Source: an uncultured Chromatiales bacterium
GTDB taxonomy: Bacteria > Pseudomonadota > Gammaproteobacteria > Steroidobacterales > Woeseiaceae
NCBI GenBank assembly: GCA_965368465.1
Contig: CBDUMZ010000005.1
Location: forward strand, 35,596-99,595
Reading direction: 5' to 3'
DNA: 64,000 nt
Both the position numbers and the translations under genes were made by a program. A model generated the notes under the pieces. It saw only the letters and a program-made list of their open reading frames with translations, ran no database searches and was not told the origin of the DNA. Positions 7,092-64,000 of the stretch are shown piece after piece. The stretch's first letter is position 1. Every line of letters starts with the position of its first letter.

Positions 7092-7100
7092 TGCCCCCGT

Positions 7101-14110: not shown

Positions 14111-14121
14111 AGGAGGAACCC

Positions 14122-42005: not shown

Positions 42006-42017
42006 TGTTCCAGGCCC

Positions 42018-48348: not shown

Positions 48349-48354
48349 ACGCTC

Positions 48355-48813: not shown

Positions 48814-48951
48814 GTTGATTTCCCTTCCATAATTGCGGGCAGCCTACGCGTGCCTGCGGCATCCGCGTATTTGGTGAACCGCTCAATTCCGGTTCAATTG
48901 CCGTGGGTACGTGCATCCATAATACGTGAAACCATCGGGAGGAAACTGCGC

Positions 48952-51900
48952 ATGTCCGACCTGTTTCGCCCGATTGGCGTGGACCAGCTCGCAAAGTGGC
49001 TGTTCACCGAACTCGAGACCCGGAATTCGGCCTTTGGGATCCCGAAGCAACACATCTTCGTACCGGACCCGTCGGCAACGTATCGTGCGCAGGTCTTCGG
49101 GCAGACGCTCGACACGCCCTTTGGCCCGGCGGCCGGGCCGCATTCCCAGATGGCACAGAATATCGTCACGGCGTGGCTCTGCGGCGCTCGCTACGTCGAG
49201 CTCAAGACCGTCCAGACCCTCGACGAACTCGACGTCAGCAAGCCCTGTATCGATATGGAGGACGAGGGATACAACGTCGAGTGGTCACAGGAACTCAAGG
49301 TTCACGAATCCTTTGACGAGTACTTGCGCGCCTGGGTGCTGATTCACGCGTTGCATCACAAGTTCGAATTCCCGGGCGAGACGCCCGTGATGTTCAATCT
49401 CAGTGTCGGGTACGACCTCGCCGGGATACGGCAACCCAACATGCAGTGGTTCCTGGACAACGTCGCCGACAGCTCGGCACGAAAAGCCGAGATCGTCGAC
49501 GCGGTGGCACGGTACTACCCTGCTGTTCGCGACATCGACATTCCGGACCGGTTCTCCGACAACGTCACTTTATCGACCATGCACGGCTGCCCGCCTGGCG
49601 AGATCGAGAGCATCTGCGAATACCTGCTGCGGGAGCGGCGCCTGCACACGCTCGTGAAATGCAATCCGACCTTGCTTGGGCCGGCGCGTGTCCGCAGGAT
49701 CATCAACGCGGACCTCGGGTTTGCCGACGTCGTCGTGCCCGATGTCGCGTTTGAGCACGACCTCAAGTACGACGACGCAGTACCGATGCTGCGCAGGCTG
49801 CGTGCAGTCGCAGGTGACAGCGGCCTGGCGTTCGGCGTCAAGCTGTCGAACACGCTCGAGGTCGAGAACCGCCGCAAGGTCTTCAGTCCGGACGAGAAGA
49901 TGATGTACCTGTCCGGCCGCCCGTTGCACGCCATCACGGTAAACCTCGCGGCCGATCTTGCCGAGGAGTTCTCCGGCGACCTGCCGATGTCGTTCTCGGC
50001 CGGCGCGAGTTGCTACAACGCCGCGAACCTGCTGCGCAGCGGCATGCAGACGATCACGGTCTGCTCCGACCTGTTGAAGACCGGTGGCTATCTGCGGCTA
50101 CTCGACTACGTCAGGGCCGTTGAGGGTGTCTCACCCGATCCGGAAAACGCCCTGGCACATCTGCGGCGCTATGCCTCGAGCGTGTGTGGCGATCCCGACA
50201 ACATGAAAGCCGCGTTCGTCACGTCGGGCAGCAAGACGTCCCGCGAGCTCGGCGCTTTCGATTGCATAGCGGCGCCTTGCGTGGATGCCTGTCCGCTCGA
50301 CCAGAAGGTTCCCGACTACATGGCAGCCGTGCGGCGCGATGACATCGCCGCGGCCCAGCGGGTCGTGCACGCTGACAATCCGCTGCCCTGCACGCTCGGG
50401 CGCATTTGCGATCACCTGTGCGAACAGGCTTGCGTGCGCACACATCTCGATGAACCGGTTGCGATCCGCGACATCAAACGATTTATCGTCGACCGCGAAC
50501 GGGAAGTCGCGCTCCCGCCTGCCGGGGACGGACATGGTCCGAAGGTGGCGATCATCGGCGCAGGGCCAGGCGGCCTGTCGGCGGCGATCGAGCTGGCGCG
50601 TGGCGGCTGCAAGGTCGAGATCTTCGAGGAACAGGCCTACGCCGGCGGCATGGTCGGTGGCGTTGTGCCGGAATACCGGCTGCCAAGAGCGGTGTTCGCA
50701 GAGGACTATGCGACGCTGGAAGCGCTGGGGGTACCTGTCCATTTCAACGTGCGCATAGGCCGCGACCTCACGCTTGCAGCACTCCGCGAGGAGGGATTCG
50801 AGAACATTCTTGTCATGGCCGGCGCCCAGCTCGGCCGAACCCTGGCGCTGGATGGCGCCGACGCCGACGGCGTCCTCGATGCCCTGCAGTTCCTGCGCCT
50901 GTCGAAAGAACAGCAGGCTCTCGATGTCGGTAAACGGGTCGGCATCATCGGGGCTGGCGATACGGCCATGGACTGCGCGCGGGTCGCGTGGCGCCTGGGC
51001 GATCGCAAAGTCACACTGATCTACCGGCGCACGATCGAGCAGATGCCGGCCGACCGCGAAGAGATTACCCAATTGCTCGAGGAAGGCATCGACGTCCTCG
51101 AACTCGCGCTTCCCGAGCGCCTCGTTGCCGGGAACGGCAGGCTGCAGGCGCTGCACTGCCAGCGCATGCGGCTGACGGACGAGCGCGACGCATCCGGCCG
51201 CCGCACGACCGAGGTCATACCGGATTCGGGCTTTGACGTACCGATCGATACACTGATTCTTGCGATCAGCCAGCACGCCGTGCTGGATTTCCTCGACGGC
51301 GAACCGATCGCGATCAATGAGCGCGGCTATATCGAGGTCGACCCGGTCACGTTCGAGACCTCCCTGCCCGGCGTCTACGCGGGTGGCGATGTCGCCAATG
51401 ACGGCCCCGCCACCATCGTGAAAGCCGCCGCCGCGGGCAAGGCCATCGCCGCCAGCATCCTCAAACAGTCGGCATCCGAAGAGGTGACTGGCACCGTTTC
51501 GGGTGTCGAGATGGCGGCGATGCTGCGCCGGCGAAGTCACCGGGTGCGGCGCGTGCGGGCGCCGGAGTTGCCCGTTGCAGAGCGGCGCAATTTCCGCGAG
51601 GTCATGCTCACTTATTCCCGGGAGCAGGCGCGGGAGGAAGCGGCGCGCTGCCTCGATTGCCATACTTTCTGCAGTATCTGCGTCGGCGTCTGCCCGAATC
51701 TCGCCCTGTTCACCTACCAGACGGAGCAGCGCCACCAGCGCTTCCAGGTCGCCGTACTCGCCGACCTCTGCAACGAGTGCGGCAACTGCACGACCTTCTG
51801 CCCGACGTCAGGCACTCCTTACCGCGACAAGCCCCGCCTGTACGTCGACAAGGACGACTTCGAGGCCCAGCAGGACAACGCCTATATGATTTTCCACGAT

Positions 51901-52059
51901 GGCGACGACTGGGCTATCGATGCACGCTGTGACGGCGTGACACGACATATGGAACTCAACGACCCGCTGGATGCGGCAAACCCGCAGCAAGCCGCTATGC
52001 AGACGCTGTTGGAAGGCGTGCGGCGGTCGATGCCGTTCCTGCCGGTACGCGAGGCATGA
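48952..52059 (+). CDS. ygfK: YgfK-like multidomain Fe-S/FAD oxidoreductase ('putative selenate reductase subunit YgfK')
   Basis: 1035 aa. N-terminal DHOD/DPD-like TIM barrel, central GltD-like region (CVDACP...CEQAC, GAGPGGLSAAIE, IGAGDTAMDCA) and C-terminal Fe-S motifs (CHTFCSICVGVCP, CNECGNCTTFCP). ATG 48952 is preceded by GGGAGGA. Confidence 0.85.
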   Translation: MSDLFRPIGVDQLAKWLFTELETRNSAFGIPKQHIFVPDPSATYRAQVFGQTLDTPFGPAAGPHSQMAQNIVTAWLCGARYVELKTVQTLDELDVSKPCIDMEDEGYNVEWSQELKVHESFDEYLRAWVLIHALHHKFEFPGETPVMFNLSVGYDLAGIRQPNMQWFLDNVADSSARKAEIVDAVARYYPAVRDIDIPDRFSDNVTLSTMHGCPPGEIESICEYLLRERRLHTLVKCNPTLLGPARVRRIINADLGFADVVVPDVAFEHDLKYDDAVPMLRRLRAVAGDSGLAFGVKLSNTLEVENRRKVFSPDEKMMYLSGRPLHAITVNLAADLAEEFSGDLPMSFSAGASCYNAANLLRSGMQTITVCSDLLKTGGYLRLLDYVRAVEGVSPDPENALAHLRRYASSVCGDPDNMKAAFVTSGSKTSRELGAFDCIAAPCVDACPLDQKVPDYMAAVRRDDIAAAQRVVHADNPLPCTLGRICDHLCEQACVRTHLDEPVAIRDIKRFIVDREREVALPPAGDGHGPKVAIIGAGPGGLSAAIELARGGCKVEIFEEQAYAGGMVGGVVPEYRLPRAVFAEDYATLEALGVPVHFNVRIGRDLTLAALREEGFENILVMAGAQLGRTLALDGADADGVLDALQFLRLSKEQQALDVGKRVGIIGAGDTAMDCARVAWRLGDRKVTLIYRRTIEQMPADREEITQLLEEGIDVLELALPERLVAGNGRLQALHCQRMRLTDERDASGRRTTEVIPDSGFDVPIDTLILAISQHAVLDFLDGEPIAINERGYIEVDPVTFETSLPGVYAGGDVANDGPATIVKAAAAGKAIAASILKQSASEEVTGTVSGVEMAAMLRRRSHRVRRVRAPELPVAERRNFREVMLTYSREQAREEAARCLDCHTFCSICVGVCPNLALFTYQTEQRHQRFQVAVLADLCNECGNCTTFCPTSGTPYRDKPRLYVDKDDFEAQQDNAYMIFHDGDDWAIDARCDGVTRHMELNDPLDAANPQQAAMQTLLEGVRRSMPFLPVREA

Positions 52060-52060
52060 C

Positions 52061-53383
52061 ATGAAATCCCTGCTAATCACCAACGGTCATCTCGTCACTC
52101 TCGATGCGAACAATCGCTTCATCGAGAACGGCAGCATTCTCATCGAGGGCAATCACATCATCGATGTCGGCCAGTTTTCCGCGAGCAAGTACAAAGCGGA
52201 CCGGACGATCGACGCTCGTGGCAGCCTGGTCATGCCGGGCCTTATCAACGCCCACCACCACCTCTACTCCACCTTTGCGCGCGGCTTCACCCCGCCCGGC
52301 CCGCCGGCAACGAATTTCGAGGAAACGCTCAGGAATCTCTGGTGGAAGCTCGACAAGGCGCTCGACGCGGAAGACGTTTACTACTCGGCCCTGCTCGCGA
52401 TCATGCAGGCGGCCCGGGCCGGCTGCACGACGATCATCGATCATCATGCGTCGCCGTCCTGTGTCGACGGCAGTCTCGACCAGGTAGAACGCGCGTTCCG
52501 CGAGGTCGGACTGAGTGGCTGCCTGTGCTACGAGGTATCCGATCGCAATCGTCCCGGTGAAGGCATCGAGGAAAACGAACGCTACATCCGCAAGTGCCAG
52601 GATGCCGAGGACGACCAGATGGCGGCCCTGTTCGGCCTGCATGCGCTGCTCACCCTTGGAACCCGGACGCTCGATCGCTGCGCCGAAGCGGGTCATGCGC
52701 TCGGCGCCGGCTTCCACGTGCACGCCGCCGAAGATGAGATCGACGTGCAGACGACGATGGAGCGTTACGGCCGCGGCATCATGGATCGCTTTCTCGACTT
52801 CGGTATCGCGGGCTCGAAGACGATATTCGTGCACGGCGTGCATTTCGCGTCGCGCGAACTGGACCTGCTGCGCTCGACGAACTCGATGCTCGTCAACAAT
52901 CCCGAGTCGAACATGAACAACGGCCTCGGCGTCGCACCGATCCTCGACATGCTCAAGCATGGCGTCCTGGTCGGGGTCGGCACCGACGGCATGTCGTCGC
53001 ACATGATCTCGCAGGCGCGGGCAATGTACCTGCACCAGCGCACCTACCATCGCGACCCGACGGTTGCCTTCGGCGAAGCCTGCGAGATCCTGCTCAGGAA
53101 CAACCGGGAGATCTGCAACCGCCTCTTCCGCGAGCCGCGCGGCATGCTGGCGACCGGCCAGCTCGCGGACATCATCGTTCCGGACTATGTGCCGTTTACG
53201 CCGCTCTCGGCCGAGACGTTTTACGGCCACCTGTTATTCGGGCTCAGCTTTACGCGGGTGCGCACCACGATCTCGCGCGGCGAGGTCGTCGTCGACGAAG
53301 GCCGCCTGCCCCACCTCGACGAAGACCGGATCCGCGCCAGGTGCGCCGAGAGATCCTCTAGAATCTGGTCGAGGATTAATTAG
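52061..53383 (+). CDS. ssnA: SsnA-like amidohydrolase
   Basis: Amidohydrolase metal motif PGLINAHHHLYS, HASP, VHAAE, VHGVH, GVGTDG. Sits immediately after ygfK as in E. coli. ATG 52061 is 1 nt after the ygfK stop. Confidence 0.82.
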   Translation: MKSLLITNGHLVTLDANNRFIENGSILIEGNHIIDVGQFSASKYKADRTIDARGSLVMPGLINAHHHLYSTFARGFTPPGPPATNFEETLRNLWWKLDKALDAEDVYYSALLAIMQAARAGCTTIIDHHASPSCVDGSLDQVERAFREVGLSGCLCYEVSDRNRPGEGIEENERYIRKCQDAEDDQMAALFGLHALLTLGTRTLDRCAEAGHALGAGFHVHAAEDEIDVQTTMERYGRGIMDRFLDFGIAGSKTIFVHGVHFASRELDLLRSTNSMLVNNPESNMNNGLGVAPILDMLKHGVLVGVGTDGMSSHMISQARAMYLHQRTYHRDPTVAFGEACEILLRNNREICNRLFREPRGMLATGQLADIIVPDYVPFTPLSAETFYGHLLFGLSFTRVRTTISRGEVVVDEGRLPHLDEDRIRARCAERSSRIWSRIN

Positions 53384-53407
53384 TAACAAATTGAAAAGGT
53401 TATACTT

Positions 53408-54292
53408 TTGACCACGGCATGGAACAACTACTACACGCCCCGTACGGTCGCTGACGCGCTGGCCATCCTGCAGCGCTACGCCGGCCGCGCACGCGTGATC
53501 GGTGGTGGTACCGACCTGCTGGTCGAAACCCGGCGTGGCCTGCGGCGACCTATCGATGCCATCGTGGACGCCACGCGGATCGACGGACTGGACAGCGTCT
53601 CGGAAGACGGCGACTTCATTGTCATCGGCTGCGGCGTTACCCACACCCGTATCGTGCACGATCCGCGCATTGTGCGTTTCGGCCGCTGCCTCTCCGAGAG
53701 TTGCGGCGTGATCGGCGGCCCGCAGGTGCGCAACACGGGAACGCTCGCCGGCAATGTGGCGCACGCCCTGCCCGCCGGCGACGGCACCATCGGCCTGATG
53801 GCGCTCGGCGGCGAGGTCGAAGTGGCCAGCGCTGACGGCACGCGGTGGATGCCCGCCAAGGACACGTTCGCCGGCCCGGGCCGCAGCCGTATCGACCGCC
53901 ACCGTGAAATCCTCACCCGGCTCAGGTTCCGCAAGACGGCTGGCGACGAAGGCTCGGCCTTTCACCGCGTCATGCGGCCACAAGGCCTGTGCCTGCCGAT
54001 CATCTCCATGGCCACGCGCCTGTCTGTCGTCGACGGCACGATTGCGGCCGCCAGTATCAGCATGGGCCCCGTGGGTCCCGTGCCCTGGTTTGCGGAGCCG
54101 GTCGCCGACGTCCTCGTGGGCGCACCCGCAACAGAGGATGCCTTCACGCAGGCCGCCGACGTCGCGCTCAGGAACATCAGCCTGCGCACGAGCAAGTACC
54201 GAGCGACCGAGGAATACCGGGAGACGATGATCCGCACTTACCTGCCGGTCATCCTGGCCACGGCGGCACGCCGCGCAGGAAGTGCGTCATGA
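53408..54292 (+). CDS. ygfM: FAD-binding subunit of a molybdenum hydroxylase (YgfM/CoxM-like)
   Basis: RVIGGGTDLLV, GTLAGNVAHALPAGDG, and a C-terminal CO-dehydrogenase flavoprotein-like region. TTG start. Confidence 0.82.
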   Translation: MTTAWNNYYTPRTVADALAILQRYAGRARVIGGGTDLLVETRRGLRRPIDAIVDATRIDGLDSVSEDGDFIVIGCGVTHTRIVHDPRIVRFGRCLSESCGVIGGPQVRNTGTLAGNVAHALPAGDGTIGLMALGGEVEVASADGTRWMPAKDTFAGPGRSRIDRHREILTRLRFRKTAGDEGSAFHRVMRPQGLCLPIISMATRLSVVDGTIAAASISMGPVGPVPWFAEPVADVLVGAPATEDAFTQAADVALRNISLRTSKYRATEEYRETMIRTYLPVILATAARRAGSAS

Positions 54293-57072
54293 GCCGCCTG
54301 CAAATGACGGTCAACGGCCGCCCCGTCGACATCGAGGTTGACGAGTCACGCTACCTGTCCGACGTGCTGCGCGACGACCTGGCGCTTACCGGCACGAAGA
54401 TCGGTTGCGCCGAAGCCGAATGCGGCATCTGCACAGTGCTCGTCGACGGTACCGCGGTCGTCAGCTGCGTCTACCCGGCGTTCAAGGCCCAGGGTCGGCG
54501 CGTAGAGACGATCGAGGGCCTTGCAGAGGATGGCGAGTTGCATGCCCTGCAGCAGGCCTTCCTCGATCACGGTGCGGTCCAGTGCGGCATTTGCACGCCG
54601 GGCCTGATCATGACCGCCAAGGGATTGCTCGATCGCAAGGCGGCAGCCGGCGACATCGTGACCGAAGCCGACATACGCACTGCCCTCAAGGACTCCTACT
54701 GCCGCTGCACGGGCTACCAGAGCGTCATCAATGCGATTCTGCAGGCGTCAGGCCAGGACGTACCGCCCTACCTTCCCGAGACCCGGGCCCCGGAAGCATC
54801 CGTCGGCAAGCCACGGCCAAACCCGAACGCCCTTGCGAAGATTCGCGGTACCGCGCGTTTTACCGACGACTACCGTTTCCCGGGCATGCTGTTCGCACGC
54901 ACGTTGCGCGCCCGGGTGGCGCACGCCCGCATTGTTGGTATCGACGTTGCCGCGGCACGCGAACTCGATGGCGTGCACGCGGTACTGACGCACGAAGATG
55001 TGCCCGGCCGCAATGCGCACGGCGTGGTCAGTGTCGACTGGCCGGTCCTGTGCAGCCGCAAGGTCCGCTATGCGGGCGACGCCGTGGCCATCGTCGCGGC
55101 GGACAGTGAGGACATTGCCGCGGCAGCGCTTGACCTGATCAAGGTCGAGTACGAGGAATTGCCCGCCGTAACCGACCCGATCGCCGCCCTGAAAGCCAAC
55201 GCACCGCAGGTTCACGAAGAGCGCCCCGACGGCAACCTCCTGAAGCACATCAAGGTCCGCAAAGGCGACATCGAGGCCGGTTTCAAGGCGGCCGACGTTG
55301 TCGTTGACCTGACCTACCGTACGCCGACGACCGAACACCTGTTCCTCGAACCCGAGTGCTCCATCGGCGTGCCGGCCGGTTACGACCCCGGTCGATTTGG
55401 CGGCATGTGCGACGCACTCGCGACACGCGGCGAGACGGCGAAACACGACAAGACGACGATTTACGTCGGCAGCCAGATCCCCTACGCCGATCGCGACCAG
55501 GCCGCGGCGGCTCTCGGCAAGCCGGCCGACAACGTGCGCGTCGTCGCCACACTGATGGGCGGTGGCTTCGGCGGCAAGGAAGACATTACGGGGCAGATTC
55601 ACGCTGCGCTGCTCGCCGAGGCAACCGGGCGCCCGGTCAAGATGCTGTACTCCAGGCAGGAAAGCCTGCTCGTGCATCCCAAGCGCCACGCGACGATCAT
55701 TCGCATGCGCACGGGCGCAACGCGCGACGGCAAGCTGACGGCGGTCGAGGCCACCCTGTATGGCGACGGCGGCGCGTACGCGAGCCTGAGCGAAAAAGTG
55801 CTCACGCGCGCAACGACCCATGCGTCCGGCCCCTACGACATCCCGAACGTGCGTGTGGACTGCTTTGCCACCTACACGAACAACGTTCCCGCCGGCGCGT
55901 TCCGTGGTTTCGGCGTCACGCAAAGCTGCTTCGCCGCGGAAAGCAACATGGACATCCTGGCCCGGAAACTCGGGCTCGACCCGGTCGACTTCCGGCGCCG
56001 GAATGCGCTCGAGGTGGGTTCCACGACGGTCACGGGACAGGTCATGCGCGAGAGCGTCGGCCTGCTCGAGTGTATCGAGCGGGTCGACGCCGATATGCGC
56101 GCCGGCGACTTCCGCTGGACCTGGGACGAGGGTCACAAGCGCCTCGCCTGGGGCCTGGCCGTCGCCTACAAGAACACCGGGCTCGGTGGCGGCGCACCGG
56201 ACAAGGCGACCGCCGAGGTCGAAGCCTGGCATGACGCCGAGCGGGGCCTGCTCGCGGAGGTTCGCATCTCGTCTGCCGAAATGGGCCAGGGCTTACCGGG
56301 CGTGCTCGCCGCGTGCGCCGCCGAAGAGCTGGGTATCCCGGCCGGGAACGTGAGCGTGCTCCTCGGCGATACCGATGTCTGCCCGGATGGCGGGCCGACG
56401 ACGGCCAGCCGCCAGACCTTCGTGAGCGGCAATGCGGCCAGGCTCGCGGCGCGCGATGTGGCCGCAAAACTCGCAGACGCGCCGGGAACCCGCGCGGTCG
56501 CGCGGCATGAGTACTGGGCACCGGCGACCCAGCCGCTGGGGACCGGGGGCGATATGCATGTCGCGTTCAGCTTCGTCGCGCAGGCCGCACTCTGCGAAAT
56601 CGACATGCGTACGGGCGATGTCCAGGTCCGCAGGATCATCGCTGCGCACGACGTCGGCCGGGCCATCAACCCGCTGACGCTCGAGGGCCAGATTGAAGGC
56701 GGCATCGTCATGTGTATCGGTTATGCGCTCACCGAGCATTACATCCAGGAAGACGGCATCCCCTGGACCAATGTCATGGCCCGCTACAAGACACCAAGCA
56801 TCACGCATGCGCCGCCGATCACATCGCACATCGTCGAGCACGAACTCTCGACGGGCCCGTTCGGCGCCAAGGGAATGGGCGAGCTTCCCAGCATCCCGAC
56901 GAGCCCGGCGATCACCAACGCGATCTACAACGCAACGGGCGTTCGCGTTCGCAGCCTGCCTGTGGACCAGGACAGCCTGTTGCATGCCATTCGCGCGGGA
57001 GCGACCGAGGTTGAACTCGGCTGGGGCGACCGCGAACCCATCCCCACAATCGAATTCGGAGGGGAACGTTGA
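54289..57072 (+). CDS. xdhD: Molybdenum hydroxylase with fused N-terminal 2x[2Fe-2S] domain (XdhD-like)
   Basis: GCAEAECGICTV, CGICTPG, CRCTGYQ, then aldehyde oxidase/xanthine dehydrogenase Mo-binding blocks (GGGFGGKE, AGAFRGFG, GELP). ATG 54289 overlaps the ygfM stop (ATGA). Confidence 0.88.
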   Translation: MSRLQMTVNGRPVDIEVDESRYLSDVLRDDLALTGTKIGCAEAECGICTVLVDGTAVVSCVYPAFKAQGRRVETIEGLAEDGELHALQQAFLDHGAVQCGICTPGLIMTAKGLLDRKAAAGDIVTEADIRTALKDSYCRCTGYQSVINAILQASGQDVPPYLPETRAPEASVGKPRPNPNALAKIRGTARFTDDYRFPGMLFARTLRARVAHARIVGIDVAAARELDGVHAVLTHEDVPGRNAHGVVSVDWPVLCSRKVRYAGDAVAIVAADSEDIAAAALDLIKVEYEELPAVTDPIAALKANAPQVHEERPDGNLLKHIKVRKGDIEAGFKAADVVVDLTYRTPTTEHLFLEPECSIGVPAGYDPGRFGGMCDALATRGETAKHDKTTIYVGSQIPYADRDQAAAALGKPADNVRVVATLMGGGFGGKEDITGQIHAALLAEATGRPVKMLYSRQESLLVHPKRHATIIRMRTGATRDGKLTAVEATLYGDGGAYASLSEKVLTRATTHASGPYDIPNVRVDCFATYTNNVPAGAFRGFGVTQSCFAAESNMDILARKLGLDPVDFRRRNALEVGSTTVTGQVMRESVGLLECIERVDADMRAGDFRWTWDEGHKRLAWGLAVAYKNTGLGGGAPDKATAEVEAWHDAERGLLAEVRISSAEMGQGLPGVLAACAAEELGIPAGNVSVLLGDTDVCPDGGPTTASRQTFVSGNAARLAARDVAAKLADAPGTRAVARHEYWAPATQPLGTGGDMHVAFSFVAQAALCEIDMRTGDVQVRRIIAAHDVGRAINPLTLEGQIEGGIVMCIGYALTEHYIQEDGIPWTNVMARYKTPSITHAPPITSHIVEHELSTGPFGAKGMGELPSIPTSPAITNAIYNATGVRVRSLPVDQDSLLHAIRAGATEVELGWGDREPIPTIEFGGER

Positions 57073-58541
57073 AACTCGTACCTGACATCCGCGACGACGT
57101 GCGGCAGAAGAGCAAGGCACGCGCGCGCCGGCACAACATCGTCCTGCCGACGTTCGCGCAGCAGAAAGACCCGACCCTCATCCCCGACTCGATCAAATCG
57201 CGGCTGCGGGACGTCGGGCTCTGGGATCTCGACCCGGCCAACCTGTTTCGCATTACCTGGAAGAACGAACCTGTCGCACACGGCGGCGGCTATGGCGAAG
57301 GCAACTGGATCGAGTTCCCCCCGGCACTGACCGGCATCGACGCCACGATCGTCGGCATCGTCGGCAAGTGGTTCCCGACCGGCGCTCACAAGGTCGGCGC
57401 GGCCTATGGGTGCCTGGTGCCGCGCCTCGTGACGGGCGCATTCGACCCGGATACGCAGAAAGCCGTGTGGCCCTCGACGGGCAATTACTGCCGCGGTGGC
57501 GCCTACGACTGCGCCCTGCTGTCCTGCCCGGCGGTTGCGATCCTGCCCGAGGGCATGAGCCGCGAGCGTTTCGAGTGGCTCGAGCAAATCGGAACCGACG
57601 AAGTCATCGCAACACCCGGGACCGAGTCGAACGTCAAGGAGATCTACGACAAGTGCTGGGAGCTCCGCGAAGAACGCGGCGACGGCATCGTGGTGTTCAA
57701 CCAGTTCGAGGAATTCGGTAACGCGATCTGGCACTACCAGATGACCGGGTCGATCGTCGACGAGATCTTCCGCAAGCACTACGCCGACGGGCGCCGCCTC
57801 TCCGGCTACGTCAGCGCCACGGGCTCGGCCGGCACGATCGCCGCAGGCGACTACCTGCGCACACAGCACCCGGACCTGCGCGTCGTCGCGACCGAGGCAC
57901 TGCAGTGCCCCACCCTGTTGCAATTCGGCTTCGGCGATCACCGCATCGAAGGTATCGGCGACAAGCACGTGCCGTGGATTCACAACGTGCGCAACACGGA
58001 CTTCGTTGCTGCCGTCGACGACGAACAAACCATGCAACTCATGCGATTGTTTAACGAAGACGCCGGACGAGCGTGCCTGCGCCGCGAAGGCGTGGACGAG
58101 GACACGCTCATCGCGCTCGGCCAGATCGGCATCTCCGGCATCTGCAACCTGGTCGCCGCGATCAAGACCGCGCGCTACTACGACATGGACGGCCGCGATG
58201 TGATCTTCACGCCGCTCACCGATTCCATGGAACTGTACTCGTCACGCATGCAGGAGATGAACGACGCCTGTGGCGCCTACAACGGCCGTCTCGCTGACCA
58301 GCACTTCGGCCGCTACCTGCAGGGGACGACCACCGATCACGTCCGCGAACTGACTTACGCGGACCGCAAGGCACTGCACAACTTCAAGTACTTCACGTGG
58401 GTCGAGCAACAGGGGCGCAGCTCTGACGAACTGCGCGAACTCTGGGATCCCGACTTCTGGCGTGAAGTGTTCTCACAGGATGTCGTTGACGAATGGGATC
58501 GACTCATCGATGCGTTCAACAGCGACGGAGGCAGCACATGA
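57069..58541 (+). CDS. Fold-type II (Trp-synthase-beta superfamily) PLP-dependent enzyme, unusual 490-aa form
   Basis: FPTGAHKVGAAYG (putative PLP-Lys, TrpB-like TGAHK), STGNYCRGGAY, SATGSAGTIAAG. ~100-aa N-terminal and ~130-aa C-terminal extensions. TTG start overlaps the xdhD stop. Confidence 0.7.
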   Translation: MKLVPDIRDDVRQKSKARARRHNIVLPTFAQQKDPTLIPDSIKSRLRDVGLWDLDPANLFRITWKNEPVAHGGGYGEGNWIEFPPALTGIDATIVGIVGKWFPTGAHKVGAAYGCLVPRLVTGAFDPDTQKAVWPSTGNYCRGGAYDCALLSCPAVAILPEGMSRERFEWLEQIGTDEVIATPGTESNVKEIYDKCWELREERGDGIVVFNQFEEFGNAIWHYQMTGSIVDEIFRKHYADGRRLSGYVSATGSAGTIAAGDYLRTQHPDLRVVATEALQCPTLLQFGFGDHRIEGIGDKHVPWIHNVRNTDFVAAVDDEQTMQLMRLFNEDAGRACLRREGVDEDTLIALGQIGISGICNLVAAIKTARYYDMDGRDVIFTPLTDSMELYSSRMQEMNDACGAYNGRLADQHFGRYLQGTTTDHVRELTYADRKALHNFKYFTWVEQQGRSSDELRELWDPDFWREVFSQDVVDEWDRLIDAFNSDGGST

Positions 58542-59731
58542 GCAGTACGTACTACCAGGACGCGATGGCGGTGAAACCCGACCTCGTCAAATTCATGCAG
58601 GACATCATCCGCATCCCCTCGTTGAGTTCCGAGGAAGGGGCTGTCGTCCAGCGTATCAGGGAAGAAATGCTGCGCATCGGCTACGACGAGGTGACGATCG
58701 ACCCGATGGGCAACGTCATCGGCCGCATCGGCTCGGGACCGAAAGTGATCGCGTTCGACGGTCACGTGGACACGGTCGACGTTGGCGATCCGGCGCTCTG
58801 GGACCGCGACCCGCATTCCGGCGACATCGAGGGCGACATCCTCTACGGCCGCGGCACGAGCGACATGAAAGGCGGCGTCGCATCGAGCGTCTATGCCGGC
58901 GCACTGCTCAGGAAGCGCGGTGTCCCGGACAACGTGACGGTCTACGTGACGGGCACGGTGCAGGAAGAGGACTGCGACGGCCTCTGCTGGCAGTACATCG
59001 TCAATGAAGACAAGCTCCGGCCGGACCTCGTGGTCATCACCGAGCCCACCAGCCTGCGCATCTACTACGGCCATCGCGGCCGCATGGAAATGGAGGTCCA
59101 CACCTCCGGTATCTCCTGCCATGGTTCGGCGCCCGAACGCGGCGACAACGCCGTGTACAAGATGGCCGGCATCATTGCCGATATCGAAAAGCTCAACGAA
59201 AAACTCGAGCCACGTGAGCCTCTCGGCAAGGGGACGGTAACCATTAGCGAAATCCGCTCGACCTCGCCGAGCCTCTGCGCCGTGGCCGATGGCTGTACGA
59301 TCCATCTCGACCGCCGCCTGACCGTCGGTGAAACCGAGCAGTCTTCGGTCGCGGAGATTCTTGCCCTGCCGTCCGTCAAGGCCGCCAACGCGACCGTGAC
59401 CGTGCTCGAGTACGCCGTCCCGAGTTACACCGGGCTCACCTACCCGACCCGCAAGTACTACCCGACCTGGGAGATGCCGGCAGACGGCCCCGAGATGCAG
59501 GCCGCGACCAGCGCTTTCCGCGACGCCTTCGGCAAGGAGCCCGAGATCGGGCACTGGACCTTCAGCACCAACGGCGTCGCCACGGCCGGCATGCACGGCA
59601 TCCCGTCCATCGGCTTCGGCCCGGGACACGAACACTTTGCGCACGCCCCGAACGAGCAGACCGAGATCGAGCACCTCGTATGCTGCGCAGCCTTTTATGC
59701 AGCCCTCGTCGATGAGTTCGCGAAGGACTAG
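58538..59731 (+). CDS. ygeY: YgeY-like M20 peptidase/deacylase
   Basis: IPSLSSEEG, IDPMGNVIGRIG, DGHVDTV, GRGTSDMKGG, QEEDCDG; collinear with E. coli YgeY as remembered. The ATG overlaps the upstream stop (ATGA). Confidence 0.85.
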   Translation: MSSTYYQDAMAVKPDLVKFMQDIIRIPSLSSEEGAVVQRIREEMLRIGYDEVTIDPMGNVIGRIGSGPKVIAFDGHVDTVDVGDPALWDRDPHSGDIEGDILYGRGTSDMKGGVASSVYAGALLRKRGVPDNVTVYVTGTVQEEDCDGLCWQYIVNEDKLRPDLVVITEPTSLRIYYGHRGRMEMEVHTSGISCHGSAPERGDNAVYKMAGIIADIEKLNEKLEPREPLGKGTVTISEIRSTSPSLCAVADGCTIHLDRRLTVGETEQSSVAEILALPSVKAANATVTVLEYAVPSYTGLTYPTRKYYPTWEMPADGPEMQAATSAFRDAFGKEPEIGHWTFSTNGVATAGMHGIPSIGFGPGHEHFAHAPNEQTEIEHLVCCAAFYAALVDEFAKD

Positions 59732-59747
59732 AAACAGGAGATACACG

Positions 59748-60749
59748 ATGACCCGCGAAGCCAAGCCCATACCCGGCCACATGAAAGGCCGCGACTGGCT
59801 CATGACCCAGGACTGGTCGGACGACGAGATCGAACTCGCGCTCGATACGGCCGACACCCTGAAAGACGAGTTCAAAAGCGGCGTGCCGACGCTGCACCTG
59901 CCGCACAAGAGCGGCTTCCTGATCTTCTTCGACAAGTCCACGCGCACACGCAACTCGTTCGAGGCCGGCATGACGCAGCTTGGCGGCCACGCGCACTTCA
60001 TCGATTCGGAAACCTCGCAGATCGCGCACGGCGAAAGCCCGAAGGACATGGGTACGATTCTTTCTACCTACGGGCACGGCATCATGATTCGGCACGACCT
60101 GGTGCCCGGCGAAGGCCAGACTTACATGCGCGAGGTTGCGCGGCACGCCTCGATCCCCGTCATCAACATGCAATGCGACGTGGACCACCCCTGCCAGACG
60201 CTCGCCGACCTTATGACGATTCGAGAAGAGTTCGGTAAAGACCTGAAAGATTTAAAGATTGCCGTCTCCTGGGCCTATGCCCCCAGCTATGTGAAACCGA
60301 TGTCCGTGCCGCAGGGCCTGATCATGCTCATGACGCGATTCGGCATGAACGTCACGCTCGCTCACCCGCCCGAGTACACCCTCATGGACGCACCCATGCA
60401 GATAGCCCGCGACAACGCGGCCCGCTCCGGCGGCCGTTTCGAAGTCGTGGACAACATGGCGGACGCGTTCGCCGACGCGGACATCGTGTACCCCAAGAGC
60501 TGGGGCGTGGAGTCCCTGTTCAGCCAGCCCGAGGAAGCCATGAACGTGGCGCTGCAGTACCGCGACTGGATCTGCGACGAGGCCATGATGGCCCGGGCAA
60601 AAGAGCGTGCCATCTACATGCATTGCCTGCCGGCGGACCGCAATTACGAGGTCACTGACGCGGTTATCGACGGCCCGCAGTCGCGCGTATACCCGGAAGC
60701 CGAGAATCGCCTGCACACGGCCAAGGCGCTCATGGCGCTGACCATGTGA
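59748..60749 (+). CDS. ygeW: YgeW-type knotted carbamoyltransferase
   Basis: STRTR, SQIAHGES, INMQCDVDHPCQ, WAYAPSYVKPMSVPQG, LMTRFGMNVTLAHP, DADIVYPKSW, YMHCLPAD: the YgeW-specific blocks. AGGAG RBS. Confidence 0.88.
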   Translation: MTREAKPIPGHMKGRDWLMTQDWSDDEIELALDTADTLKDEFKSGVPTLHLPHKSGFLIFFDKSTRTRNSFEAGMTQLGGHAHFIDSETSQIAHGESPKDMGTILSTYGHGIMIRHDLVPGEGQTYMREVARHASIPVINMQCDVDHPCQTLADLMTIREEFGKDLKDLKIAVSWAYAPSYVKPMSVPQGLIMLMTRFGMNVTLAHPPEYTLMDAPMQIARDNAARSGGRFEVVDNMADAFADADIVYPKSWGVESLFSQPEEAMNVALQYRDWICDEAMMARAKERAIYMHCLPADRNYEVTDAVIDGPQSRVYPEAENRLHTAKALMALTM

Positions 60750-61708
60750 TCGCCATGACGGGTAACAAACGACCACTCATCGTAATTGCCATCGGCGGCA
60801 ACTCGCTGATTCGCGACGCCGAGCATATGGATGTCCTCGACCAGTACCGCACGGCCGGGCAGACGGCCCGCCACATCGTCCCGCTGGTCAAAGCGGGCTA
60901 CCGCGTCCTGGTCACGCATGGCAACGGCCCGCAGGTCGGCTTCATCCTGCTCCGCTCCGAACTGGCTCGCGACAAGATCCACCAGGTCCCGCTGGCCAAC
61001 TGCGTCGCCGACACGCAAGGGTCGATCGGCCTGCAGATTGCACAGAGCCTGCAGAACGAGTTCCTGCACCAGGGCCTCGAACAGGCGGTAACGGCCATCG
61101 TCACGCAATGCGTCGTGGACGAGCAGGATCCGAGCTTCGCCGCGCCGAGCAAGCCGATCGGGCCATTCATGAGCGAAGAGGAAGCACGGCAGCGCGAACG
61201 GGACGAAGGCTGGGTCATCGGTGAGGATGCCGGACGCGGCTGGCGGCGCCTCGTACCCTCGCCGCAACCGCTCAGTGTCATCGAGCTGCCGGCAATCCGC
61301 ACGTTGCTGGACAGCGGCCAGGTGGTCATTGCCGCTGGTGGTGGCGGCATTCCGGTGGTGTTCCGTGAGGATGGCGAGCTGCGGCCCCGCCCCGCCGTCA
61401 TCGACAAGGATGCCGCGTCCTGCCTGCTGGCGCGGGAACTCGGTGCGTCGGTCTTCATCATCTCCACGGATGTCGACAAGGTTGCACTCAACTTCGGCAC
61501 CGACAAGGAGCGTGACATCGACCGCCTGACGGTTGCCGAGTGTCGCGAGCATCTCGCGGCCGGGCATTTTGCGGCCGGCAGCATGCGGCCGAAAATCGAA
61601 AGCGCCGTCCGCTTTCTCGAGGGCGGCGGCGAGAAAGTCATCATTACGCAGCCGCACAACCTGCGCGCCAACCTCGACAACATCTACGGCACGCACATCG
61701 TGCCGTAG
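60746..61708 (+). CDS. arcC: Carbamate kinase
   Basis: IAIGGNSL, THGNGPQVG, AGGGGIPV, IDKDAAS. A GTG start overlaps the ygeW stop; ATG 60755 is the alternative. Confidence 0.92.
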   Translation: MIAMTGNKRPLIVIAIGGNSLIRDAEHMDVLDQYRTAGQTARHIVPLVKAGYRVLVTHGNGPQVGFILLRSELARDKIHQVPLANCVADTQGSIGLQIAQSLQNEFLHQGLEQAVTAIVTQCVVDEQDPSFAAPSKPIGPFMSEEEARQRERDEGWVIGEDAGRGWRRLVPSPQPLSVIELPAIRTLLDSGQVVIAAGGGGIPVVFREDGELRPRPAVIDKDAASCLLARELGASVFIISTDVDKVALNFGTDKERDIDRLTVAECREHLAAGHFAAGSMRPKIESAVRFLEGGGEKVIITQPHNLRANLDNIYGTHIVP

Positions 61709-61720
61709 AGGACTGAGCCC

Positions 61721-62920
61721 ATGAACAGTTTCCGCTGTTTCGCCTGCGACAGGACCCAGCCCGCCGACTTCTCGGGCTGGGTCTGCCCGTCCTGTGGCGG
61801 CAATCTCGATGTCGTCAACGACCGCGAGACGATCCTGGAGCAGATACGCCAATCACCCTTCGACACGACGCGAATCCCCCTGGAGATCGGCAACACGCCA
61901 CTCTATGCCGCCCCGCGACTGGGGCATTCGATCGGCCTGCGCAACCTGTACCTCAAGGACGACACGGTCAGCCCGAGTGCATCGAGCAAGGATCGGGCCA
62001 GTGCCGCCGTCGTGCTGCGGGCGCTGCACGCAGGTGCCGATATCGTCTCGGTCGCGAGCACCGGCAACGCCGGCTCGTCGCTTGCCTGTGTCGCAGCGGC
62101 AGCGGGAATCAAGGCCGTGGTCATCGTTCCGGAAAGCGCACCGGTTGCCAAACTCACGCAGGCACTGGCCTTCGGTGCGACGGTGCTCGCTGTGCGCGGC
62201 ACCTACGACGACGCGTTCGACCTCTGCCTGAAAGCCTCTGCGCAATTCGGCTGGTACAACCGCAGCACGGGCATCAACCCGTACACACGCGAGGGAAAGA
62301 AGATCTGCGCGTGGGAGATCTGGGCCTCGCTGGAAGGCCGTGTGCCCGACAGGATCGTCGTGCCGACCGGTGACGGCAACCTCCTGAGCGGCATGTGGAA
62401 AGGCTGGCGGGAGCTCAAGGCGGTCGGCCTTATCGACCGCCTGCCGAAAATCGATTGCGCGCAGTCGGAAGGCAGCGATGCGATCTCCCGGACCGTGCGC
62501 GGGATCCGTGGCAGTCGTCAGCCCGACTGGGCCTCGCTCGAGGTAGCTGCCGTCGACGCGCACACGGTTGCCGATTCCATCTCCGTCGACCGGCCGCGCG
62601 ACGGGCTGGCCGCTGTCAGGGCCGTTTACGAGTCCGGCGGCGTAACGACGACCGTTCCCGACGTCGAGATTCTAGAGGCGATCCCCGAGATGGCTGCGGC
62701 CAGCGGCGTATTCGCGGAGCCGGCGGCCGCGGCAGCGTGGGCAGCGGTCAAGCGGATGGTGGCCGAACGGCAGATTGCAGCGGACGAACTCGTGGTCTGC
62801 CTCGTGTCGGGCAATGGCCTCAAGGACATTGCCCATGCGACAGAGGCTGTCGGCAGACCGAGCGTCATCGACCCGACGCTCGCGGCGGTTGAGTCGGCGC
62901 TGGCCTCAGCGCGAGGATAA
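61721..62920 (+). CDS. Threonine-synthase-like PLP enzyme with N-terminal zinc ribbon
   Basis: CFACDR...CPSCGG ribbon, NTPL, PSASSKDR (PLP-Lys region; ThrC normally has TGSFKDR), STGNAG, PTGDGNLLSG. Confidence 0.78.
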   Translation: MNSFRCFACDRTQPADFSGWVCPSCGGNLDVVNDRETILEQIRQSPFDTTRIPLEIGNTPLYAAPRLGHSIGLRNLYLKDDTVSPSASSKDRASAAVVLRALHAGADIVSVASTGNAGSSLACVAAAAGIKAVVIVPESAPVAKLTQALAFGATVLAVRGTYDDAFDLCLKASAQFGWYNRSTGINPYTREGKKICAWEIWASLEGRVPDRIVVPTGDGNLLSGMWKGWRELKAVGLIDRLPKIDCAQSEGSDAISRTVRGIRGSRQPDWASLEVAAVDAHTVADSISVDRPRDGLAAVRAVYESGGVTTTVPDVEILEAIPEMAAASGVFAEPAAAAAWAAVKRMVAERQIAADELVVCLVSGNGLKDIAHATEAVGRPSVIDPTLAAVESALASARG

Positions 62921-64000
62921 GGACAGCAACGCGTCCCGGCGCTGCATCAGCGCCTGCAGTCGCGTCTTGTCGAGCACGTTGCCGAGCTCGGCGCGCAGCG
63001 TCTTGTCGTCGAGCGCCTGCAATGCCGCCCGCCACTCATCGCCTACGGCCAGGCCAACGTCCACGATATCAGGCGGCAAGTCGCCGTCGGTAGCGAACGC
63101 CGCATTGTGATCGACCAGCATCAACGACCAGTCTTCGCGGTCGTACACCATGGCCGACGGCGAGCGAACGACGTTATGAATCAGCGCGTCGAATACGAGC
63201 ATCGCGTCTATCTGCTCCTCGACCGGACAGATAGCGGCAGCGCCCTCGCCAGCGGCTACGCGCTCCCGTTCGGTCAGCGTTACGCCAGGCAGGAATTGCA
63301 GCGTGCCGCGCCGGCCATCGATCGTCCGGCGCACGGTGACAGGCACCATGCCGAGCTGTAACTGGCGGTCAAGCCGATAAGCCGCAAACTCAGGCGCAAA
63401 GCGCGACTTCCCGGGCAGTGTCCGAAAGGTCGCAAGAACCGCCAGTTTCCCGTCCGTCACCTGCACGAGCTTCCATTCGGCACCTTCGGCGAGCACATCG
63501 AGGATATGCCCCGTTTCGAGCATTTTCGCGAGGTCGTCCTCGGTCAATGGCGCATCGCCGAGACCGACTTTGAACGGGTGCTCCACGGGCGCGACGCGCC
63601 GCCTGCCCGACTCTGTCACGACGCTCGCCTTGCCGCCCTCGAAAACCAGGGCATTGCCGCTGCCGCCGTAGACGTGGCTCAACATGCCGGTGTCTATTTC
63701 GAACACCCGGCCACCGAATCTCTGTTGCACCTGCCGCGTTGACGTCGTTGTGTGACCGATCACGAGCCGGGATGCATCGACTTTCTGCAATACGGCATCC
63801 AGCTGTCGGGACTCGACAAAGCGATTGCACATGGCACTTCCGCGATACCAGGTTGGCCCGGCCGGCTTGTGCAGCGGCGACTCGCTGAAGTCGATGAGCT
63901 GCTGAGCGGTTGCCGCAACTGCTGGCTGCAGCGTCCCGGCATCCAGTAATCTCGCCAGCGCTTTCGGTGTCTTCCGGAAGCTATCCCAGGGGGTCAGTAC
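62906..64000 (-). CDS. Metallophosphoesterase (C-terminal part seen) fused to a Fam20/secretory-kinase-like C-terminal domain; 5' end beyond the window
   Basis: The frame is open from 63832 to the window edge (..GPTWYRGSAMCN..). LVIGHT is the last phosphoesterase motif. The C-terminal ~200 aa carries EFAAYRLDRQLQLGMVPVTVRR and FDALIHNVVRS...LVDHNAAF. Confidence 0.65.
   Translation of the reverse strand, partial: VLTPWDSFRKTPKALARLLDAGTLQPAVAATAQQLIDFSESPLHKPAGPTWYRGSAMCNRFVESRQLDAVLQKVDASRLVIGHTTTSTRQVQQRFGGRVFEIDTGMLSHVYGGSGNALVFEGGKASVVTESGRRRVAPVEHPFKVGLGDAPLTEDDLAKMLETGHILDVLAEGAEWKLVQVTDGKLAVLATFRTLPGKSRFAPEFAAYRLDRQLQLGMVPVTVRRTIDGRRGTLQFLPGVTLTERERVAAGEGAAAICPVEEQIDAMLVFDALIHNVVRSPSAMVYDREDWSLMLVDHNAAFATDGDLPPDIVDVGLAVGDEWRAALQALDDKTLRAELGNVLDKTRLQALMQRRDALLSLSSR

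Follow-up and report, generated by a model that had tools for sequence, protein, structure and literature searches.

The window analysed here is a stretch of 64,000 nucleotides from contig CBDUMZ010000005.1 of an uncultured Chromatiales bacterium, and between positions 48952 and 62920 it carries nine open reading frames (ORFs), all on the plus strand, which form a single operon in this Woeseiaceae-like gammaproteobacterium (Table 1). Seven of the products correspond in sequence or in position to enzymes of the reductive pathway of urate breakdown. The other two are fold-type II enzymes dependent on pyridoxal 5'-phosphate (PLP), namely a protein of 490 residues which is called PLP490 here and a protein resembling threonine synthase (ThrC). 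Two different enzymes of this type had been named in the original prediction, which was made from the sequence without database searches, and both belong to PF00291.

Table 1. Features of the operon and of the region in front of it (positions in the window; model scores are followed by the cut-off of the model)
Feature	Position	Strand	Length (aa)	Match or remark
Upstream intergenic region (presumed promoter and ribosome-binding site)	48814..48951	+		Divergent from DUF4440 gene; GGGAGG 7 nt ahead of ATG
YgfK-type Fe-S flavoenzyme (predicted 2,8-dioxopurine reductase, DOPOR)	48952..52059	+	1035	TIGR03315, 936 bits vs 835, passes
SsnA amidohydrolase (predicted ring opening of dihydro-2,8-dioxopurine)	52061..53383	+	440	NF005540, 525 vs 444; TIGR03314, 492 vs 455.5; passes
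FAD-binding subunit of molybdenum hydroxylase, XdhB-like, in ygfM position	53408..54292	+	294	PF00941 and PF03450
Fused [2Fe-2S] and molybdopterin subunit, in xdhD position	54289..57072	+	927	Best model TIGR03311, 767 vs 830, below
PLP490, fold-type II PLP enzyme, CysK-like core with N- and C-terminal extensions	57069..58541	+	490	PF00291, sole Pfam match
YgeY M20 hydrolase (predicted ureido-group hydrolysis)	58538..59731	+	397	NF009555, 567 bits vs 321, passes
Compact YgeW-type carbamoyltransferase	59748..60749	+	333	Closest E. coli homologue YgeW, 39% identity
Carbamate kinase	60755..61708 (alternative GTG start 60746)	+	317	NF009007, 362 bits vs 266, passes
ThrC-like fold-type II PLP enzyme, N-terminal CxxC...CxxC zinc ribbon	61721..62920	+	399	PF00291; TIGR00260, 189 bits vs 167, passes

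The original prediction had placed nine same-strand genes at these coordinates, with gaps of 24 nt at most and with start and stop codons overlapping at four junctions (ATGA, TTGA, ATGA and GTGA), and had taken them for one operon. The junctions were found again in the sequence, and the tight co-directional layout is joined by the fact that a second gene caller independently predicted the same nine genes on more than 12 identical metagenome contigs. The genes of YgfK and SsnA are 1 nt apart and those of SsnA and the FAD subunit 24 nt, the FAD and molybdenum (Mo) subunits overlap in ATGA, the Mo subunit and PLP490 in TTGA (the TTG start having GGAGGGG in front of it) and PLP490 and YgeY in ATGA. 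A gap of 16 nt follows between YgeY and the carbamoyltransferase, and the latter overlaps carbamate kinase in GTGA only with the GTG 60746 start; with ATG 60755, which was the gene caller's choice, there is a gap of 5 nt. The last gap, between carbamate kinase and the ThrC-like gene, is 12 nt. Two minus-strand genes border the operon on its upstream side, and on the downstream side it meets a convergent Metallophos gene (from 62906, minus strand). The GC content of the operon is about 0.61-0.66, that of the window being about 0.62. No sigma-70 consensus promoter was found in the intergenic region 48814..48951. When 47400-64000 was scanned for promoters and terminators, the matches were not above the shuffled expectation and none was usefully placed at the start or the end of the operon.

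The reductive, or 2,8-dioxopurine, pathway of urate breakdown in E. coli and Clostridium was solved biochemically in 2025 (Li et al., PMC12507026; Liu et al., bioRxiv 10.1101/2025.04.24.650524). According to these authors XdhD-YgfM or XdhAC reduces urate to 2,8-dioxopurine, YgfK reduces the ring, SsnA opens it to give ureidomethyl-hydantoin and HyuA converts the hydantoin to 2,3-diureidopropionate. YgeW then removes one ureido group by phosphorolysis, the carbamoyl phosphate being used for ATP by carbamate kinase, YgeY hydrolyses the other ureido group to leave 2,3-diaminopropionate, and YgeX converts this to pyruvate and ammonia. The two studies disagree on which of the ureido groups is removed by YgeW. 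Weak thermodynamics is reported for the reaction of YgeW, while YgeX uses the D and L forms of diaminopropionate equally well (Li et al., PMC12507026). The original prediction knew the neighbourhood by a comparative-genomics link, and the link to purines stands; what has changed since 2025 is that the pathway is solved, so that the replaced step can be pinpointed. Its description of the operon as a rewired anaerobic purine cluster also holds, as the marker enzymes pass their cut-offs and the upper-module order of E. coli is kept.

This order, YgfK-SsnA-FAD subunit-Mo subunit, is identical to ygfK-ssnA-ygfM-xdhD of E. coli. In a full-length BLAST alignment the YgfK protein shares 37% identity with E. 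coli YgfK, and by BLAST SsnA, the marker gene of Li et al. (PMC12507026), shares 35% with its E. coli counterpart. The FAD subunit has XdhB as its best NCBIfam model, below the cut-off (145 bits vs 310), and is 26% identical to E. coli XdhB by BLAST; it gave no match to the YgfM model of NCBIfam and none to E. coli YgfM by BLAST. The fused [2Fe-2S] and Mo subunit falls below the cut-off of the XdhD model TIGR03313 (296 vs 1102), is nearer to E. coli XdhA plus XdhC than to XdhD by BLAST, and lacks the XdhD-specific insertion holding Glu606, the residue singled out by Li et al. (PMC12507026). Its fusion has the same architecture as that of C. sporogenes XdhAC/DOPDH. The names YgfM and XdhD, which the original prediction had given to these two genes, have to be given up for XdhB-like and XdhA/XdhC-like, and the two subunits are positional and not sequence equivalents of YgfM and XdhD.

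In the lower part of the operon YgeY is 54% identical to E. coli YgeY and carbamate kinase 46% identical to YqeA (BLAST), and judged on identities and model scores together YgfK, SsnA, YgeY and carbamate kinase can be taken as orthologues of the enzymes of the E. coli cluster. The carbamoyltransferase is under every NCBIfam cut-off, including that of the YgeW model NF005538, which fits it best (265 vs 453), and of TIGR03316 (248 vs 500). Relative to E. coli YgeW it has three deletions, the motif SWAYxPSYxKPxSVPQG is common to both, and its top matches among solved structures are the YgeW entries 3Q98 and 2YFK. Of the matches to the E. coli ygeW-ygfM set that had been proposed, those to YgfK, SsnA, YgeY and carbamate kinase are thus borne out at the cut-offs, that to YgeW is reduced to a compact relative below its cut-off and those to YgfM and XdhD are lost.

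It could be argued from the Mo/Fe-S subunit, with its scores under the XdhD and TIGR03311 cut-offs and without the Glu606 insertion, that what the operon breaks down is some other N-heterocycle, be it a different oxopurine or a pyrimidine-like compound, instead of urate by way of 2,8-dioxopurine. YgfK and SsnA are only 35-37% identical to the E. coli enzymes, which would fit such a substrate, as would the lack of a urate or xanthine permease nearby. We consider this improbable, as YgfK and SsnA pass curated equivalog cut-offs and the full lower module, with YgeY, the YgeW-type carbamoyltransferase and carbamate kinase, fits a diureido-C3 intermediate. Moreover a verrucomicrobial metagenome-assembled genome (MAG) that has the gene order of the window (locus L018 of the surveys below) carries an XdhD-like Mo enzyme (42%) and a carbamoyltransferase 71% identical to YgeW, together with an extra SsnA paralogue.

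Among the Pfam-annotated genes of the window (1-64000) and of the 10 kb downstream of it there is no hyuA, ygeX, xanthine/uracil (purine) permease or sigma-54 activator, and selD, yqeB and yqeC are also absent from the approximately 74 kb so inspected. No second amidohydrolase was found in the operon, the window or the 10 kb downstream. The original prediction had noted that HyuA and YgeX were missing from the operon and its flanks and that neither a purine permease nor a YgeV-type regulator was present, and on this wider stretch its statement is upheld. Used as a control, E. coli YgeX obtained 637-697 bits on three diaminopropionate ammonia-lyase models (TIGR03528, TIGR01747 and NF006058), and these models are not among the matches listed for the window enzymes (all 7 for PLP490 and 25 of 40 for the ThrC-like protein). 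By BLAST the ThrC-like protein is 23% identical to E. coli YgeX over 140 aa, PLP490 has no match to it at E<=1e-5, and two homologues of PLP490 match it over just 54-58 aa with E ~4e-4. Neither enzyme is therefore a YgeX orthologue, in agreement with the original prediction. What the pair shares with YgeX/DpaL is the fold-type II PLP family and a putative terminal role in the cluster; what sets it apart is that neither protein matches TIGR03528 or TIGR01747 among the matches listed.

PLP490 is far below the cut-off of the cysK model TIGR01139 (94 bits vs 351) and has about 170 residues beyond the CysK-fold core, CysK and CysM being of about 300 aa. In Foldseek, about 320 residues of its AlphaFold2 model (pLDDT 94, pTM 0.93) align with solved structures with a TM-score of 0.8-0.86 on the target, about 0.55 on the query and an identity of 22-27%. 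The closest structures are O-acetylserine sulfhydrylase, beta-cyanoalanine synthase, S-methylcysteine synthase, CBS and O-ureido-L-serine synthase, and about 80 N-terminal and 90 C-terminal residues are matched by no solved structure. The conserved core comprises K108 (the PLP lysine, in GAHKVGAAY), the carboxylate-binding Asn loop S136-T-G-N, the phosphate loop G252-S-A-G-T and S356, the serine at the pyridine N1, and conserved residues are also held by the extensions (P27, W64 and W464). PLP490 thus has the core, the lysine, the Asn loop, the Gly-rich loop and the N1 serine of the O-acetylserine sulfhydrylase/beta-substituted alanine synthase family, from which it differs in its low identity, its extensions and a context of purine catabolism instead of sulfur assimilation. 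With the catalytic residues intact on a CysK-fold core, it looks like an active beta-eliminating or beta-replacing enzyme on an alpha-amino acid.

There are more than 8000 database relatives of PLP490, the best 120 of them at 82-90% identity, and those that are named are mostly called 'cysteine synthase' or 'pyridoxal-phosphate dependent enzyme'. An exhaustive search (E<=1e-30) gave 333 clusters at 50% identity. The protein is encoded in at least 598 GTDB species and retains 58-85% identity across phyla, and of all the cluster proteins it is the one that has changed least in distant loci, as in a Bacteroidota locus (L086) where it is 61% identical to the window protein vs 34-56% for the other pathway proteins. 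Gene fusions were considered as a functional clue and discarded, as the longer database proteins are either chimeric or merged by a frameshift, the partner being ABC_tran, HerA or a second PALP fragment. No constant partner of PLP490 was seen in the loci without pathway genes, where the neighbours are unrelated (PDH E1, aconitase, secreted repeat proteins and others).

The ThrC-like protein, which passes the general model TIGR00260, does not reach the cut-off of the better-fitting model NF006050 (220 vs 303); it aligns with Aquifex ThrC (2ZSJ) at 189 bits over query residues 49-390. The zinc ribbon is kept across the aligned homologues, and 33 of the 34 homologues linked to PLP490 depart in the alignment from the ThrC motifs. 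In this subfamily GNTS becomes GNA[AG], NSxNPxR[IL]EGQK becomes [TC][GA]xNPx[TL][RV]EGKK and GNxGN becomes GDG[NCV], so that A, T/C, G/A, T/L and D stand at the positions aligned to T88, N154, S155, R160 and N188 of T. thermophilus, where the single canonical ThrC of the alignment (L051, an internal control) and the solved ThrC sequences retain T, N-S, R and N. We take these five residues to be those that bind the phosphate of O-phosphohomoserine; the residue roles in T. thermophilus ThrC were reportedly described by Omi et al. in 2003. If these roles are right, the subfamily would not be threonine synthase, and a substituent that is cationic or a ureido group would be well matched by the new Asp of the GDG loop. 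In comparison with the short bacterial and archaeal threonine synthases (Aquifex 2ZSJ, T. thermophilus 1UIM) the fold and the PLP lysine are the same and the zinc ribbon occurs in some archaeal-type ThrC models, whereas the motif residues differ throughout and the genomic partners are carbamate kinase, the carbamoyltransferase and PLP490. An AlphaFold2 model of the ThrC-like protein was set aside because of its shallow alignment (73-84% identity), a pLDDT of 69.7 and active-site loops below 50.

Public annotations as 'cysteine synthase' and 'threonine synthase', along with the TIGR00260 score, might suggest that the two PLP genes are housekeeping cysteine and threonine synthases which are merely co-transcribed with purine genes. 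This explanation was considered and rejected in view of the cysK score and extra residues of PLP490, the loss of the canonical ThrC motif residues from the ThrC-like subfamily, and the recurrence of both genes beside urate-pathway genes in more than 10 phyla.

This recurrence was observed in two neighbourhood surveys, each of them covering the 80 best-matching loci and not a random sample (160 loci in more than 10 phyla), with labels assigned by BLAST of six-frame ORFs at thresholds set by the analyst. The first took PLP490 as its seed and comprised 80 species-level loci, which belong to Gammaproteobacteria, Verrucomicrobiota, Planctomycetota, Chloroflexota, Elusimicrobiota, Bacteroidota and others. 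The ThrC-like gene was present in 34 of them, a carbamoyltransferase in 26, SsnA in 24, YgeY in 23, a Mo hydroxylase in 21, carbamate kinase in 19, YgfK in 10 (plus a 690-aa YgfK without the GltD module in 8), HyuA in 6 and YgeX in none. Direct adjacency was counted 16 times for ThrC-like and PLP490, 14 times for PLP490 and YgeY and 8 times for carbamate kinase and ThrC-like. The second survey, of 80 metagenome loci, had the ThrC-like subfamily as its seed and began with a member from outside the Gammaproteobacteria. Here carbamate kinase occurred in 36 loci (in 27 directly upstream of the ThrC-like gene), a PLP490-type gene in 29 (in 22 directly adjacent to it), a carbamoyltransferase in 23 and a distant one in 9 more, SsnA in 17, a Mo hydroxylase and YgeY in 15 each, HyuA in 4 and YqeB in 3, adjoining the variant clusters of L093, L126 and L141; YgeX was again found in none of the 80. 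The PLP490-type genes of this survey include a deep clade with 27-42% identity, and it stands in a second recurrent type of cluster with the order XdhD-like, PLP490-like, ThrC-like, SsnA, YgeY, carbamate kinase, carbamoyltransferase.

The complete nine-gene order recurs in Woeseia/Gammaproteobacteria MAGs (L009 and L010), and the same order without carbamate kinase in a Lysobacterales MAG (L014). The composition noticed in the original prediction is therefore a recurrent one, with the PLP pair having a wider context across the phyla surveyed, and the arrangement is not due to chance, because independent genomes and metagenomes (L009, L010, L014, L146, L156 and L160) repeat the gene order with proteins that are 56-89% identical.

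At the level of the cluster the PLP pair and YgeX are mutually exclusive, YgeX being found in 0 of the 160 loci, and in otherwise complete clusters, for instance L086 and L126, the pair is in YgeX's place. HyuA behaves differently: of the 10 loci with HyuA in both surveys 9 also have ThrC-like and PLP490-type genes, and the tenth (L087) is a 2.8-kb fragment. Since YgeX is never present while HyuA coexists with both PLP genes in 9/10 loci, it is YgeX and not HyuA that the pair displaces, and the earlier proposal that the PLP enzymes stand in for both has to be restricted to YgeX. The ring-opening amidohydrolase varies between clusters and can be HyuA, an SsnA paralogue or unlinked. An SsnA paralogue (25-28% identity to SsnA) either adjoins the true SsnA or closes the cluster in L018, L078, L126, L142, L157, L166 and L169, most of which have no HyuA; it is a candidate hydantoin/dihydropyrimidine-ring amidohydrolase and may do the job of HyuA.

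On these grounds we read the operon as a variant of the reductive urate pathway in which PLP490 and the ThrC-like enzyme displace YgeX in the step from the C3 amino acid to pyruvate, and we give this reading a probability of about 0.65. What each enzyme catalyses, on which substrate, and how the PLP enzymes share the work we infer as follows. The FAD subunit and the fused [2Fe-2S]/Mo subunit would reduce urate to 2,8-dioxopurine, YgfK would reduce the ring and SsnA would open it hydrolytically. The hydantoin would then be opened probably by an unlinked cyclic amidohydrolase and possibly by SsnA itself. YgeY by hydrolysis and the compact YgeW-type carbamoyltransferase by phosphorolysis would take the two ureido groups off the C3 skeleton, the carbamoyl phosphate serving carbamate kinase for ATP, and beta-elimination by PLP490 and the ThrC-like enzyme together would turn 2,3-diamino- or ureido-amino-propionate into pyruvate and ammonia.

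The adjacencies of PLP490 with YgeY (14) and of carbamate kinase with ThrC-like (8 and 27 in the two surveys) suggest two sub-modules, each made of one ureido-cleaving and one PLP enzyme. Our best guess from this pairing is that the ThrC-like enzyme would consume the amine freed by the carbamoyltransferase and so pull an unfavourable phosphorolysis, and that PLP490 would act on the product of YgeY. The weak thermodynamics of YgeW fits a dedicated downstream consumer of this kind, and the pairing of carbamoyltransferase, carbamate kinase and ThrC-like would imply a carbamoyltransferase product with a free alpha-amino group, such as albizziin or diaminopropionate. Three-gene modules of a YgeW or OTC-like carbamoyltransferase, carbamate kinase and ThrC-like also lie among cell-division and housekeeping genes (L098 6240-11227, L100 7411-11218 and L112 8723-11260), and such a stand-alone set may be able by itself to break down a ureido-amino acid with a gain of ATP.

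Some observations weigh against the displacement of YgeX by the pair. About half of the PLP490 loci have no pathway gene within 10 kb, and many ThrC-like loci consist only of carbamoyltransferase, carbamate kinase and ThrC-like amid housekeeping genes, so each PLP enzyme could have a role beyond urate. The Mo enzyme is under the cut-offs of both relevant models and its substrate is deduced from position only. HyuA is missing from the operon and from about 59 kb around it, which leaves one step of the pathway without an enzyme, and why two enzymes should replace one is unexplained. Furthermore, the published intermediates have been proposed to be R (D) configured, and enzymes of the CysK and ThrC types normally act on L-amino acids.

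The last point bears on the proposal that one of the PLP enzymes is a racemase or epimerase, or is D-specific, and the other an L-specific lyase, so that together they equal the D/L tolerance of YgeX. Besides the R-configured intermediates, it can be said for this that fold-type II includes racemases, that serine and aspartate racemases are among the weak structure-database matches of the ThrC-like protein, and that the PLP genes stay adjacent even in the deeply diverged clade. To our knowledge there is no racemase in the ThrC or CysK family, and many loci have ThrC-like, carbamate kinase and carbamoyltransferase genes without PLP490, which makes this proposal rather unlikely.

Slightly less unlikely is that the pair salvages the C3 skeleton by beta-replacement, exchanging its 3-amino or 3-ureido group to form an amino acid (cysteine from sulfide, or serine). 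All the nearest structural relatives of PLP490 in Foldseek are beta-replacement enzymes, threonine synthase chemistry ends with the addition of water, and sulfur genes (a Psr-like Mo oxidoreductase, a rhodanese and Sulf_transp) lie immediately upstream in the window. These sulfur genes are, however, encoded on the other strand and have no counterpart in the remaining loci, and the canonical pathway, in which the pair holds the place of YgeX (L086 and L126), ends in pyruvate.

A bolder version of the displacement of YgeX, which we put forward only tentatively, is that the pair is not a simple substitute for it and forms a new terminal branch, in which each ureido-cleaving enzyme would be coupled to its own PLP enzyme (carbamoyltransferase and carbamate kinase to ThrC-like, YgeY to PLP490) with chemistry that has no characterised precedent. 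Possible reactions are the beta-elimination of urea from ureido-alanine, the PLP-assisted opening of a cyclic ureide bypassing the hydantoinase, and the transfer of the C3 unit to cysteine or serine. Were this true, two unannotated enzyme families that occur in at least 600 species would receive their first functions, and the known range of reductive purine degradation would widen from guts to marine sediments and to Planctomycetota, Verrucomicrobiota and Chloroflexota.

Compared with the uricolytic cluster of E. coli (ygeW-ygeX-ygeY-hyuA-yqeA ... ygfK-ssnA-ygfM-xdhD), the operon has orthologous YgfK, SsnA, YgeY and carbamate kinase as judged above, a YgeW-type carbamoyltransferase and the same order of the upper module. 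It would also follow the same logic of reduction, ring opening, removal of two ureido groups with one ATP and a PLP-dependent end. It differs in having two other fold-type II PLP enzymes and neither YgeX nor HyuA, in its XdhA/XdhC- and XdhB-like Mo and FAD subunits, in the packing of nine genes into one tight operon, and in the lack of YgeV, permeases or yqeB/yqeC/mocA nearby. Li et al. described variants of the pathway, namely C. sporogenes with XdhAC as DOPDH, C. difficile with UacX and UacY, and an F420 variant in Chloroflexota (PMC12507026). The window resembles these in that single steps are commonly filled by non-orthologous enzymes, and XdhAC is a [2Fe-2S] and Mo fusion like the window subunit; but the known variants concern the reductases and the YgeW/UacY step and none of them the terminal PLP step. 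No paper was found on this pathway variant or on either PLP family (Liu et al. was covered as a preprint), nor one describing the exact composition of the operon, which therefore appears not to be already characterised.

It was in gut bacteria, and as recently as 2025, that the pathway was worked out, and efforts are under way to build it into probiotics against gout. The present loci indicate that a large and phylogenetically broad environmental set (Woeseiaceae of marine sediments, Planctomycetota, Verrucomicrobiota, Chloroflexota, Elusimicrobiota and Bacteroidota) would run it with a different terminal module. What is new here is that two functionally unassigned enzyme families are tied to a defined step of a known pathway, and two widespread PLP families that are mislabelled 'cysteine synthase' and 'threonine synthase' in databases gain a concrete functional context. 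In the neighbourhoods of Li et al. 'YgeX' was scored by PF00291 alone (PMC12507026). Counting any PF00291 neighbour as YgeX in this way hides the displacement and would count PLP490 and ThrC-like as YgeX. The finding also bears on two questions of the 2025 commentary, namely which ureido group is cleaved first and how the C3 intermediates are configured.

Two further variations were seen in the surveyed clusters. In clusters of Planctomycetota and Verrucomicrobiota (L037 at 6518-8623, L044, L045, L049, L055, L056, L068 and L083) the short YgfK of about 690 aa retains the FMN/dihydroorotate-dehydrogenase-like domain and the C-terminal 4Fe-4S motifs and is without the GltD-type FAD/NAD(P)H module, and it would be a further reductase variant, distinct from UacX and from the F420 enzyme. 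In three Phycisphaerae loci (L043, L055 and L067) that have PLP490, ThrC-like, a Mo hydroxylase and SsnA, an AmaB-like M20 N-carbamoyl-amino-acid hydrolase and a CN-hydrolase (beta-ureidopropionase-like), both assigned by eye from the sequences, replace YgeY, YgeW and carbamate kinase. This set would be a fully hydrolytic version which forgoes the ATP.

Around the operon, a tryptophanase-family beta-eliminating lyase is encoded on the plus strand at 46152-47546 and passes the subfamily cut-off of NF009709 (706 vs 285), being below the equivalog cut-offs of TnaA and tyrosine phenol-lyase. It was rejected as a tenth member of the operon, as two minus-strand genes lie between them and it never recurs beside PLP490. 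Just upstream, the minus strand carries at 40394-46028 a Psr/Phs-type cluster with a molybdopterin oxidoreductase (42557-44761), a 4Fe-4S subunit, an NrfD membrane subunit, a rhodanese and two Sulf_transp (YeeE/YedE-like) proteins, beside which lies a multihaem cytochrome (about 39077-40384, plus strand); together they suggest polysulfide or thiosulfate respiration. Just past the 3' end of the window (L091 13256-18820), directly downstream of the convergent neighbour of the operon, a two-gene 2-oxoacid:ferredoxin oxidoreductase is followed by an NfnAB-like pair (DHODB_Fe-S_bind and GltD-like). Speculatively, this set could oxidise the pyruvate formed as end product and feed low-potential electrons back to the Mo enzyme and YgfK. 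About 23 kb upstream of the operon (25126-25740, plus strand) there is a 204-aa protein with Urate_ox_N (PF06181), the membrane domain of PuuD-type urate hydroxylases, which had no NCBIfam match and may connect this genome to urate in a second way, one that depends on oxygen. Finally, a set of DUF1841, MbnB/TglH/ChrH (DUF692), HvfC and DoxX genes lies on the plus strand at about 12490-14625, after an Rnf operon and nth.

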